This document shows positions 2,580 to 17,728 of a stretch of 34,942 nucleotides of DNA, piece after piece. The notes under the pieces were generated by a model. It was not told the DNA's origin. It worked only from the letters and a program-made list of their open reading frames with translations, and ran no database searches. Source of the stretch: Candidatus Pacearchaeota archaeon (lineage in GTDB: Archaea; Nanobdellota; Nanobdellia; Pacearchaeales; GW2011-AR1). Position 1 is the first letter of the stretch. The number at the start of each line of letters is the position of its first letter. Position numbers and translations under genes: made by a program. The stretch covers positions 1 to 34,942 of the forward strand of contig JAGVXK010000011.1 of NCBI GenBank assembly GCA_018303825.1, read 5' to 3'.

Positions 2580-3031
2580 ACATCCAATTCATAAAATCAA
2601 AAGAAAAACAACAGATTGCCGGACAGTTAAATGAGGACTTCGGCATATCAGAACTTAATTATCTGTTGATAGAGTCTGGAAAAGAAAAAATCCGGGGCTT
2701 CTCAGGAAGTTTGTCAAAAGAAGAAATAATGAAACTAGGAAAGTTGGCAAACATTGAACTTATAGGTGCATATTTAATAAAAAAAGAATCTAAAACTGAT
2801 TTAAGATTGAGCTTTGATGCGTGTATTATATTAAAAGACCAGATAACAAAAAACATTGTTGAAATTGATGATGAAAAATTCAATTCCTGGATTAGGGGAA
2901 ATGACATAGAAGTTTCAGGAATAAGTGGGAATCCAATTGTAAAATACAAAGAGGATTTTTTTGGCTGCGGAAAAAGTAATGGAATAAAGATTTTTAATTA
3001 TGTCCCGAAAGACAGAAGACTGAGAAAGTGA
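2576..3031 (+). CDS. Nip7/PUA-like partner of the m5C methyltransferase (RsmF C-terminal-like)
   Basis: ATGA overlap with the methyltransferase; LRLSFDA...WIRGNDI...FFGCGK...NYVPKDRR resembles the Nip7/RsmF C-terminal PUA region. Confidence 0.7.
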   Translation: MNIQFIKSKEKQQIAGQLNEDFGISELNYLLIESGKEKIRGFSGSLSKEEIMKLGKLANIELIGAYLIKKESKTDLRLSFDACIILKDQITKNIVEIDDEKFNSWIRGNDIEVSGISGNPIVKYKEDFFGCGKSNGIKIFNYVPKDRRLRK

Positions 3032-3084
3032 CTAATCTCTAAAAATACAATAATATTAATAAACTGCCATATTTTGCTTAAACC

Positions 3085-3461
3085 ATGCCGTACAAGCCAA
3101 GATATGCCAAAGGAGAAATCCTTGTTGTATTTAGAAAATCTACCAACGAGCAATTTGCCGGAGAATTTGGGGAAAGAATAGGATGCAAACTAAGCAAAGA
3201 AGAATATAAACATGGTGATAATGCCTTTGTTTATTTGACGCAGAAAAAAGAAGAAAAAAAGCAATAAAAAAATTTAATTCTCTCAAAGATTTTATTGATT
3301 GGGCAGATTTCAGAGATATTAAGATGGGAGCAAGATGGGAAAAATTGGAAGAAATTGTCTTTCTATTACAAAATTTAAGTGATGATGTTGCACTTTCAAA
3401 CAGAACCTACAAAGCAAAATTACAGGAAATAATCCAAATGTGTGAGAAAGCAAAAAAATAA
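3085..3461 (+). CDS. Frameshifted ~125-aa hypothetical protein (60-aa ORF plus -1 frame continuation); N-terminus resembles a subtilase pro-domain
   Basis: ORF 3085-3267 ends after A AAA AAG CAA TAA; the -1 frame from 3261 (AIKKFNSLKDFIDWADFRDIK...CEKAKK) stays open to TAA 3459-3461. YAKGEILVVFR resembles S8 pro-domain starts. Confidence 0.55.
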
Positions 3462-3497
3462 TAAAAAGTTTAAATATTGATAAATATATCAATCAAG

Positions 3498-3893
3498 ATG
3501 AAAAAAATTCCAAAACTTGAGCATCTGCTAAAAGAAATTGATAGGGATATAAATGAAAGAAGAAAATCACCAGTCCTTGAGTTTTTGATAGAATTGGGAG
3601 AGCTATGCAAGAATCAGAAAAATAATGAGCTTGCAATAGAATATGGCAAAAAATATCAAGCATTGCTGACAAAATATCATGAAACTTTTACTGCTGCCAA
3701 TAAAAATGCCCTGACAAAAAAAGAAGAGATAAAAAAATACGGCGAGAATACCTACAAAAGAATGGAAAAACACATTCAAGGTATAACTCAATCTTATGAT
3801 AAGGATGGACAAATAAGAATTCCAATTTCTGATCTGGAATGTGCTTATAGAGAAGCCACTGGGGAAAGAACGAACATTGGGGAATGGGATTAA
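3498..3893 (+). CDS. Hypothetical helical protein
   Basis: ORF track 3477-3893; first ATG at 3498; Lys/Glu-rich composition typical of this genome. Confidence 0.65.
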   Translation: MKKIPKLEHLLKEIDRDINERRKSPVLEFLIELGELCKNQKNNELAIEYGKKYQALLTKYHETFTAANKNALTKKEEIKKYGENTYKRMEKHIQGITQSYDKDGQIRIPISDLECAYREATGERTNIGEWD

Positions 3894-16128: not shown

Positions 16129-16200
16129 TGCGCCGTCTGGGAATTGAACCCAGCCGTAAACCTTGGGAAGGTTTCATACTAGCCGATATATGAACGGCGC
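16129..16200 (-). tRNA. tRNA-Gly(CCC)
   Basis: Acceptor GCGCCGT/ACGGCGC-A; anticodon arm AAACC-TTCCCAA-GGTTT; T arm CTGGG-TTCAATT-CCCAG. Confidence 0.95.
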
Positions 16201-16648: not shown

Positions 16649-16695
16649 AAAAACCAATTATAAAACAAGTTTAATAACCTTTTCTAATGAGAAAG

Positions 16696-16769
16696 TGGTC
16701 GTGCCAGGATTTGAACCTGGGACCCCTGCCTTATCAGAGCAGTATTCTACCGAGCTGAACTACACGACC
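16696..16769 (-). tRNA. tRNA-Ile(GAT)
   Basis: Acceptor GGTCGTG/CACGACC-A; anticodon arm CTGCT-CTGATAA-GGCAG; T arm CCAGG-TTCAAAT-CCTGG. Confidence 0.97.
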
Positions 16770-16792
16770 TTAAAATAGGGTGATTTAATTTG

Positions 16793-17470
16793 TTATTTAA
16801 AGCTTTGTGTAAACTTAAGATGTTTAATTGAATGTTTAGGGTTTTGGGGCTTGACAACTTTCATAAATAAATCAAACATCTCTACACCGCGAATGACAAC
16901 TGCATAAGAATCCTTTTGTCCTCCTTTTTTAACGAATTTTTCTTTATACATTGTTGCTCTCAACCCCAATTCATTAAAATTTTCTTTTAACTGACTCGCC
17001 AAAGGAAAAGATATCGTTTTTATCTCCAATCTAGGATATAATTTTCCATTCTTCTTCTCTAAATAAACACATCCATCTGTGTCAAATATGCCTCTTAAAA
17101 CTGCAGCCCTAAGAACACCATTTTTCAAAAAAATCTTAGGAATTTCTATGCTTGTCTTTGGTCCAGTTGGTAAACCTAATTTCTCTTTAAGTTTTACTAG
17201 TTCATTGCTCCAAATTTGAAAACCAAACACTCTTGTTGAAGACATTTCTCTTAAACTTATATCAATTCCATAAAGTTTCTTGAAAATAGGCTTCACTCCT
17301 TCAATATAATGCTGTTTATCGTCTTCTATATGCCCTCTAAGTAGTTGGTATATTCCTTTTTTCACCCCCTGATTATTATAATAACTCATGCTTCCATCCC
17401 CAATATGCCAACCAGTCTCTTCAGCTAACTCTTCAGTTATATTGCTAGGAAATTTTTCTATTTCATTTTT
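16793..17470 (-). CDS. Free-standing two-motif LAGLIDADG endonuclease lacking an in-frame ATG before motif 1
   Basis: Frame stays open upstream of ATG 17389 through EELAEETGWHIGDGSM (motif 1) to TAA 17473-17471; motif 2 AAVLRGIFDTDGCV; both catalytic Asp present. Confidence 0.9.
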   Translation of the reverse strand, partial: KNEIEKFPSNITEELAEETGWHIGDGSMSYYNNQGVKKGIYQLLRGHIEDDKQHYIEGVKPIFKKLYGIDISLREMSSTRVFGFQIWSNELVKLKEKLGLPTGPKTSIEIPKIFLKNGVLRAAVLRGIFDTDGCVYLEKKNGKLYPRLEIKTISFPLASQLKENFNELGLRATMYKEKFVKKGGQKDSYAVVIRGVEMFDLFMKVVKPQNPKHSIKHLKFTQSFK

Positions 17471-17621
17471 TTAATATAACTAAATAAACATCTCTATCAA
17501 GATATTCTTTTGGGCAATCAACTTTCGCACTTGTCCCAAACTTAGTAACATTTCTTTTGAAAAATCCTTCCACATTTTTTATAGATATTTTTGTTGAGTG
17601 GACAATTTTTACTTTTTTCAT
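17463..17621 (-). CDS. DUF2080-like (transposon-associated, AbrB-like) small protein, 52 aa
   Basis: Own translation: MKKVKIVHSTKISIKNVEGFFKRNVTKFGTSAKVDCPKEYLDRDVYLVILKK; V..FG.SAKV..PKEY matches DUF2080; TATA TTTAAATA upstream. Confidence 0.85.
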   Translation of the reverse strand: MKKVKIVHSTKISIKNVEGFFKRNVTKFGTSAKVDCPKEYLDRDVYLVILKK

Positions 17622-17728
17622 ATATCTTATAGATATCTTAAATATTTAAACTTTCCTAATTACAATTCTCATACAACCAACCCCTATTTTTTCATACACT
17701 TTAAAAACCCCTATAAATATATAGATAA

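Follow-up and report, generated by a model that had tools for sequence, protein, structure and literature searches.

Organization of the locus

The stretch of DNA analyzed here (hereafter, the window) comprises positions 1 to 34,942 of contig JAGVXK010000011.1, from the GenBank assembly GCA_018303825.1 of a Candidatus Pacearchaeota archaeon. On its reverse strand, next to the gene for tRNA-Ile(GAU), it holds a two-gene operon in which a gene for a 52-aa protein of the DUF2080 family is followed by that for a 224-aa single-chain LAGLIDADG endonuclease, the two genes sharing an ATGA overlap (Table 1). In the window the second gene lacks one base shortly after its start codon, and this lesion, together with the position of the nuclease family beside tRNA genes and its patchy presence among related archaea, is the subject of this work.

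A preliminary description of the locus, made from the sequence of the window, had reported a 52-aa DUF2080-like open reading frame (ORF) ending in TTA AAA AAA TGA, a nuclease frame devoid of ATG codons ahead of its first motif, and conservation of the Asp in both LAGLIDADG motifs, all of which were confirmed. The 52-aa product matches the Pfam DUF2080 profile along positions 1-48 of 50, with an E value of 3e-17 and 62.5 bits (cut-off 21.5). The 224 codons of the nuclease frame, NEIEKFPSNITEELAEETGWHIGDGSM..., extend without a stop from 17467 up to a TAA at 16795-16793; the first in-frame ATG is that of Met27 (17389), an ATA is present at 17461-17459, and shifting back by one base gives ATG AAA TAG (17466-17458), also as previously described. 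The GAT codons of the catalytic Asp residues are intact at 17398-17396 and 17077-17075. The frame sits between a divergent protein gene and the tRNA gene, in neither an intron nor an intein. Its previously noted adjacency to tRNA-Ile holds, although 23 nt (16770-16792), rather than the 24 bp then given, separate its stop codon from the tRNA.

Upstream of the pair, a B recognition element (BRE)/TATA motif, AAAGTTTAAATATT, is likely its promoter, as judged from the sequence. A matching promoter and leader, ...AAATAT.T.AGATATCTATAAGATAT-ATG, also precede the DUF2080 gene borne by an insertion sequence (IS) on another contig of the genome, C13. The corresponding box of the tRNA gene, AAAGCTTTAAATAA, lies within the 3' end of the nuclease frame.

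Table 1. Features of the DUF2080-nuclease locus and the adjoining tRNA gene in the window.
Feature	Position	Strand	Remarks
DUF2080 gene, first of the pair	17621..17463	(-)	52 codons plus TGA stop (17465-17463); Pfam PF09853
Candidate BRE/TATA promoter of the DUF2080-nuclease pair, AAAGTTTAAATATT	17641..17654	(-)	~20 nt before the DUF2080 ATG; read from sequence
A7 run	17466..17472	(-)	two DUF2080 Lys codons plus the A of the nuclease ATG; no slip site
True LAGLIDADG ATG start	17464..17466	(-)	overlaps the DUF2080 TGA as ATGA
Lesion	17458..17463	(-)	AAA TAG versus intact AAA ATA G; A4 run minus one A; ORF ends after Met-Lys
Startless rest of LAGLIDADG frame	16793..17463	(-)	Pfam LAGLIDADG_3; intact product P0002, 224 aa
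tRNA-Ile BRE/TATA box, AAAGCTTTAAATAA	16793..16806	(-)	doubles as the last nuclease codons, Ser-Phe-Lys-stop
tRNA-Ile(GAU)	16695..16769	(-)	intron-less; sole copy in genome; ARAGORN and whole-genome tRNA list

Intact and broken alleles of the nuclease gene

Protein searches retrieved a 224-aa protein, P0002 (MKIEKFP...), that equals the product of the window frame apart from its start. It is encoded by six contigs (L003-L005 among them), whose identity to the window over 6.7 kb is 99.8-99.9% and in which the nuclease starts at an in-frame ATG AAA ATA GAA...; gene calls on L003-L005 place DUF2080 at 2846-3004 and the nuclease at 3001-3675, reproducing the four-base ATGA overlap. The junction reads AAAAAAATGAAAATAGAAAAA in the intact contigs and AAAAAAATGAAATAGAAAAA in the window, with a single gap column in the DNA alignment (A1). 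The missing A falls in the AAAA that follows the ATG (window 17461-17463), the A7 run being identical in both alleles, and it is the sole indel relative to L004 and L005 over the 6.7 kb. Translation of the broken allele from the next in-frame ATG would drop the first LAGLIDADG helix.

Two assemblies independent of that of the window, ERZ4903055 and ERZ27254752, show the same lesion, ATGAAATAG, which is seen in L137/L141 and L139, and gene calls on four contigs, two of them independent (ERZ4903055 k141_2533873 and ERZ27254752 k141_197335), include a truncated product of 198 aa. The intact allele is found in at least three assemblies (ERZ27254845, ERZ27254767, and ERZ28563625). The missing A is, therefore, no artefact of the assembly of the window, and the broken allele, Met-Lys-stop, is best read as a natural null allele which, judging from these contigs, co-exists with the intact one in one natural population.

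The arrangement is shared by six of the closest relatives (L131-L136; 64-70% identity), all of which carry a 51-55-aa DUF2080 gene directly upstream of the nuclease and tRNA-Ile downstream of it. Both genes overlap by ATGA in five of the six (L131-L134 and L136) and by 14 bases in the remaining one, and the six nucleases start with ATG AAA AT. More generally, homologues all begin with MKI, MKL, or MNI and are ~222 aa long.

The preliminary description had explained the startless frame by recoding, through a +1 shift on the A7 run, or by the disruption of a DUF2080-nuclease fusion, and had left it to be established whether the junction is conserved, fused, or split in other genomes. The six close relatives answer this question with two overlapping genes, and of 487 homologues (123-392 aa), the best 120 include no case of a DUF2080 domain fused to the nuclease, so that the disrupted fusion has to be abandoned. 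As for recoding, both frames of the broken allele would indeed be joined into a fused product if the mRNA had one A fewer in the A7 run or if ribosomes shifted by +1. Nonetheless, the intact allele and all the relatives have their own in-frame ATG, the lesion lies downstream of that ATG and outside the A7 run, no fused homologue appears in the set just described, and the length of the run preceding the ATG varies from A4 to A7 among relatives, indicating that there is no conserved slippery site. A programmed frameshift or transcriptional slippage at this position is thus refuted and scarcely tenable as an explanation, although slippage on A7 might rarely occur. Very improbable as well, if marginally less so, is that the A was lost through an error of sequencing or assembly in this bin. 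The site is a short homopolymer and holds the only indel with regard to the near-identical L004 and L005, as an error might, but ATGAAATAG is also present in contigs of the two other assemblies, and L137, which carries it, shows 3 substitutions relative to the window over 3.6 kb and hence does not represent the same consensus. Moreover, the k141 contig names presumably denote short-read assemblies, of the type that rarely miscalls an A4 run. For annotation purposes, the apparent recoding site is a pseudogene allele of an ordinary overlapping gene pair, and gene models should include both the DUF2080 ORF and the true start codon of the nuclease.

Features of the LAGLIDADG nuclease

The nuclease frame matches the Pfam family LAGLIDADG_3 with an E value of 1e-11. 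In an alignment of 25 homologues (A2), with 67% mean column identity, the Asp residues of both motifs, GWHIGDGS (D24) and GIFDTDG (D131), are invariant. The AlphaFold model (predicted local distance difference test, pLDDT, 89; predicted template modeling score, pTM, 0.88) displays a duplicated alpha-beta-beta-alpha-beta-beta-alpha fold, and its best Foldseek matches are the TliVMA intein nuclease, I-Tsp061I, PI-PfuI, and I-DmoI (E values of 1e-8 to 3e-11), with a probability of 1.00 for 7qsu, 2dch, 1dq3, and the I-DmoI entries, which are the best matches by sequence too. The protein is accordingly predicted, from sequence and model, to be a single-chain LAGLIDADG endonuclease. That of the window deviates from its homologues at several near-invariant positions (N28S, an extra Leu in QLLRGH, R57G, I58V, P76S, F93L, and Y216H), substitutions that would fit a relaxed constraint in the window lineage.

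Two further LAGLIDADG sequences are found in the genome. One is a domain of the intein held by the MCM helicase gene (1189 aa; contig C2, locus L100 1386-4955), a different gene. The other is a second free-standing LAGLIDADG gene on contig C13 (L101 1605-3400), split near its 3' end by an IS of ~1.1 kb, past which the frame resumes and runs into tRNA-Gln at 3326.

A fixed address beside tRNA genes

The loci evaluated for linkage of the nuclease family with tRNA genes numbered 8 in the order and 44 in GTDB species genomes, to which 6 metagenome contigs were added. Wherever downstream sequence exists (~50 DPANN loci), a tRNA gene on the same strand begins shortly after the nuclease ORF, at a distance ranging from a few nt to 27 nt (19-27 nt in most cases). 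This tRNA is tRNA-Ile(GAU) throughout the family of ~222 aa, around half of the genes having introns, on account of which ARAGORN mislabels them. By chance, adjacency to a tRNA would be expected in ~1.5% of the cases (39 tRNAs in an 806 kb genome). The last codons of the ORF are themselves the BRE/TATA box of the tRNA, reading ...CAA AG(T/C) TTT AAA TAA or ...CAA AAC TTA TAA, with family ORFs ending as ...CAAAGTTTTAAATAA or ...CAAAACTTATAA, and the motif is found at the same distance before tRNA-Ile genes without the nuclease gene.

More distant relatives (27-41% identity) adjoin tRNAs in 11 out of 11 cases, these being tRNAs for His, Leu, Met, Arg, and Ser, on the same strand in eight loci and convergent in three. 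A subfamily of ~375-385 aa with an N-terminal extension shows an open frame that overlaps the adjacent tRNA gene (L015, L016, L018, and L025); the frame spans the whole tRNA gene in L015, L016, and L018 and enters tRNA-Arg in L025, its last ~10-30 codons being tRNA sequence. A literature search for archaeal tRNA-adjacent LAGLIDADG genes found nothing relevant.

Some other observations concern the surroundings of the cassette and the adjoining tRNA. An unusual tRNA-Ile intron of ~75 nt at position 39 is shared by L164 (genome G123, without nuclease) and L167 (genome G128, with nuclease), so that the intron type appears independent of the nuclease gene. A gene for tRNA-Gly(CCC), at 16129-16200 in the window, lies within ~1 kb or less of the cassette in the window and in five of the six close relatives L131-L136, on varying sides and strands. 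When compared with L131, the window cassette is inverted relative to VKOR and tRNA-Gly.

Presence, absence, and decay of the nuclease gene

Close orthologues of the nuclease were found in ~9 of the 151 genomes of the order, with one copy per genome and with presence and absence occurring within genera. Empty tRNA-Ile(GAU) loci, which the preliminary description had regarded as relevant, were readily found: 28 of the 29 loci from other family members are without nuclease, and so are ~21 of 23 in a sample anchored on rpl15e and chosen blind to the tRNA, the other 2 being filled. The usual context of the tRNA comprises a Zn-ribbon protein gene, then tRNA-Ile, then rpl15e. On the rpl15e tree for 27 filled and 16 empty loci, at least nine changes of state are needed. 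Decay is likewise apparent, 4 of the 42 complete family copies in the GTDB loci being frameshifted, versus none of the 26 rpl15e genes in the same loci.

The clearest comparison is that between the filled locus L035 and the empty locus L079, which are collinear with 73-76% DNA identity and differ solely in positions 1226-1932 of L035. This insert of ~0.7 kb consists of the nuclease gene and its own promoter, and it separates the stop codon of the gene upstream from the 5' edge of the tRNA BRE/TATA box. The promoters flanking it are alike, yet both are plain consensus BRE/TATA boxes, and no duplication is claimed as an insertion footprint.

Rearrangements are seen at some of these loci. When L009 (G086) is compared with L079 (G043), from the same genus, the unit of nuclease and tRNA-Ile appears inverted as a block relative to the flanking genes; in L009, where rpl15e and the Zn-ribbon gene stand on either side of it, the unit points the opposite way to the lone tRNA-Ile of L079. 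Beside a filled tRNA-Ile site, L013/L048 show at 2305-2622, immediately before the genuine rpl15e gene, an incomplete second copy of its 5' end that keeps the first ~17 residues (MTKGLYHYLREAWKKPD) joined to an unrelated hydrophobic ORF and that may be a repair scar. Finally, some rpl15e matches (e.g., G215:C9, G126:C5, G043:C2, G210:C6, G160:C5, G059:C1, and G207:C30) contain 1-2 in-frame stops, mostly TAA, which might correspond to small introns, frameshifts, or assembly errors in this essential gene.

The DUF2080 protein and its partners

Searches with the small protein retrieved 216 DUF2080 homologues of 28-91 aa, and all 48 aligned relatives match the profile. Those 75-83% identical to the window protein share contigs with the closest nucleases, and the pairing of both genes, as far as it can be read from these contigs, is stable in the clade of the window. 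Around 40 of the 44 nuclease-family members in the GTDB loci are without DUF2080. On the other hand, DUF2080 is a multi-copy gene across the order, often located at contig ends. It directly precedes, at a distance of a few bases or less, not only LAGLIDADG genes but also transposase genes of the IS66, DDE_Tnp_1, IS240, and rve families. The second DUF2080 of the genome illustrates this, as it is the first ORF, ahead of a 276-aa IS240-type transposase, of the IS240/IS6-type element that interrupts the C13 LAGLIDADG gene and that is bounded by inverted repeats of 30 nt (L101 2131-2160 and 3227-3256). Its position before four transposase families points to a general accessory of mobile-element genes.

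As regards function, a profile search of PDB sequences gave chance matches only, and relaxed Pfam scans revealed no second family. The FGTSAKVDCPKEYL segment may resemble the AbrB/MazE motif. In the literature, a DUF2080 antitoxin is listed among validated partners of nuclease toxins (PMC10440598), and DUF2080 constitutes the C-terminal domain of CalpT (bioRxiv 10.1101/2024.05.08.593097); a search for DUF2080-LAGLIDADG pairs found nothing relevant. With low confidence, DUF2080 might be proposed as a small regulator or inhibitor of mobile-element enzymes.

Interpretation of the cassette

The interpretation favored here, with a probability of about 0.55, is that the nuclease of this two-gene cassette, of which the window holds a natural null allele, is a free-standing homing endonuclease of tRNA-Ile in decay, and that DUF2080 is its accessory. 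In such a cycle, (i) the enzyme would cut nuclease-free tRNA-Ile loci near the promoter or the tRNA 5' end, (ii) repair of the cut locus would copy the nuclease gene in, and (iii) the gene would persist by drive among close relatives, then decay, as here, and then be lost. DUF2080, a small accessory or regulator ahead of many mobile-element nuclease and transposase genes in the order, would have become the upstream partner of the nuclease in one clade of the family. The cassette is probably, in other words, a selfish nuclease element linked to tRNA-Ile and in the course of decay. Of the tRNA-adjacent homing element that the preliminary description had proposed, the free-standing gene, the fixed site, and the empty sites were borne out, but mobility was not, since the nuclease co-diverges with rpl15e.

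Several results weigh against this homing interpretation, and co-divergence is the main one. Nuclease and rpl15e trees share most supported clades, and pairwise identities for both genes are correlated with a Mantel r of 0.55, a value that 0 of 2000 permutations reached. Mean identities of 62.6% for the nuclease and 62.5% for rpl15e indicate equally slow evolution, and a rate like that of a ribosomal protein would be no less expected of a gene serving the host than of a selfish one. In the same comparison no pair has an anomalously similar nuclease, as horizontal spread would produce. In approximately unbiased (AU) tests, neither the host clade, when imposed on the nuclease data (p 0.18), nor the nuclease clade, when imposed on those of rpl15e (p 0.13), was rejected; one pair only was rejected (p 0.015), and it had been picked after viewing the trees. 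Neither a cleavage site or target-site difference nor a consistent base change that could act as a tRNA immunity signature was found on comparing filled and empty tRNA-Ile loci, and the idea of the intron as a shield was discarded, introns being about equally common beside the nuclease (23/43) and without it (~8-9/21). Nor was an empty allele found in the window's population, as 7 of the 7 contigs with the identical 196-aa signal-peptidase-like neighbor carry the cassette; in G073 (L077) a signal-peptidase-like gene does occur near a tRNA-Ile without cassette, but another ORF and a tRNA stand between them and the comparison is not clean. Lastly, Foldseek returned no match below an E value of 3.8 for the DUF2080 model (pLDDT 79). 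Taken as a whole, the data on descent fit a nuclease that is under strong selection, old in these lineages, and often lost. An apparent case of transfer between domains was dismissed, because the match labelled Paceibacterota (L142; GCA_035527295.1, DATLAU010000045.1, 3.5 kb) carries an archaeal rpl15e, suggesting that its contig is probably mis-binned.

The strongest competitor, though a clearly less probable one, is a domesticated nuclease, that is, an accessory gene of the host, old and vertically inherited, whose function is linked to the tRNA-Ile locus and which is selected in some lineages and lost in others without any homing. Its product might, for instance, bind the promoter, maintain the locus, or keep foreign DNA out. 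In addition to the rpl15e-like rate and the largely congruent trees, domestication would account for the single copy per genome, for the fixed position with a promoter shared with an essential tRNA, and for the upstream synteny of TFIIS, a 190-aa protein, DUF2080, and the nuclease kept in the window's clade. Nevertheless, the strict conservation of both catalytic Asp residues is at odds with it, as domesticated LAGLIDADG relatives of the WhiA type are not known to keep them. A host gene is also difficult to reconcile with presence in ~6-9% of the related genomes searched, with those repeated changes on the 43-taxon tree and differences within genera, with ~10% of copies being frameshifted, and with a null allele segregating in the window's population. 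Sister subfamilies are, moreover, situated at many different tRNAs, as those of specificity-switching selfish nucleases would be.

Two other proposals deal with the partnership and with persistence. It is rather doubtful, albeit conceivable, that the tRNA-flanking LAGLIDADG is a long-lived, promoter-capturing selfish element and DUF2080 a universal inhibitor or regulator for homing endonucleases and four transposase families. On that account, the last nuclease codons being the BRE/TATA box of an essential single-copy tRNA, loss would need a precise deletion, and the element would remain in its host, diverging along with it over very long periods, and yet continue to drive into empty alleles. 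More unlikely still, although compatible with the homing interpretation, is a toxin-antitoxin-like pair, in which DUF2080 would bind and neutralize the nuclease here, and transposases elsewhere, as an addiction or self-limiting module. The small gene coming first and translationally coupled through ATGA, the co-divergence of both partners in one clade on shared contigs (identities of 75-83% for DUF2080 versus 64-72% for the nuclease), and the published antitoxin and CalpT reports cited above agree with such a pair. However, the pair is not obligate, given the many family loci without DUF2080; strains with the nuclease null allele keep DUF2080 intact; and DUF2080 precedes at least five unrelated enzyme families, which argues for a regulatory or DNA-binding role and against a specific protein-protein fit.

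Relation to known systems and implications

Archaeal single-chain LAGLIDADG enzymes such as I-DmoI, I-Tsp061I, PI-PfuI, and the TliVMA intein have in common with the window nuclease two motifs with catalytic Asp and a duplicated fold of ~200-220 aa, while sequence identities to it are 14-24%. These enzymes are, however, coded in rRNA introns or inteins and home into the interrupted gene, whereas the window nuclease is free-standing, situated outside any gene, and placed on the promoter side of a tRNA.

In its setting the cassette may be closer to SegB of phages T4 and T6, an enzyme that cuts in the tRNA gene region. By analogy, both nuclease genes lie among conserved genes by tRNAs and are patchy in relatives, and a cut would be expected near the own insertion point. 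SegB, named as a free-standing homing endonuclease (PMC13096335), differs in having a GIY-YIG instead of a LAGLIDADG fold and in acting during phage co-infection instead of on a cellular archaeal chromosome. Also unlike SegB, genes of the window family reach at their 3' end into the tRNA promoter, and every subfamily keeps to a single tRNA species. Among bacteria of the candidate phyla radiation (CPR), LAGLIDADG genes are reported within rRNA insertion sequences (PMC11270868); these likewise colonize conserved RNA genes of microbes with ultra-small genomes, inside rRNA there and beside tRNA here. Regarding the transposase-associated DUF2080 proteins (PF09853), the 52-aa protein is a clear member, but its partner is a LAGLIDADG nuclease and not a transposase.

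Since filled and empty sites are known to the nucleotide, homing is directly testable with one protein and two DNA substrates. Enzymes of this kind recognize long conserved sites in tRNA regions and could supply new meganuclease specificities. For the biology of these archaea, the locus provides a clean case of a little-known arrangement, a LAGLIDADG gene locked to one tRNA through a shared promoter, which is widespread though patchy in DPANN archaea, and it ties the unstudied DUF2080 family to nucleases as well as to transposases.

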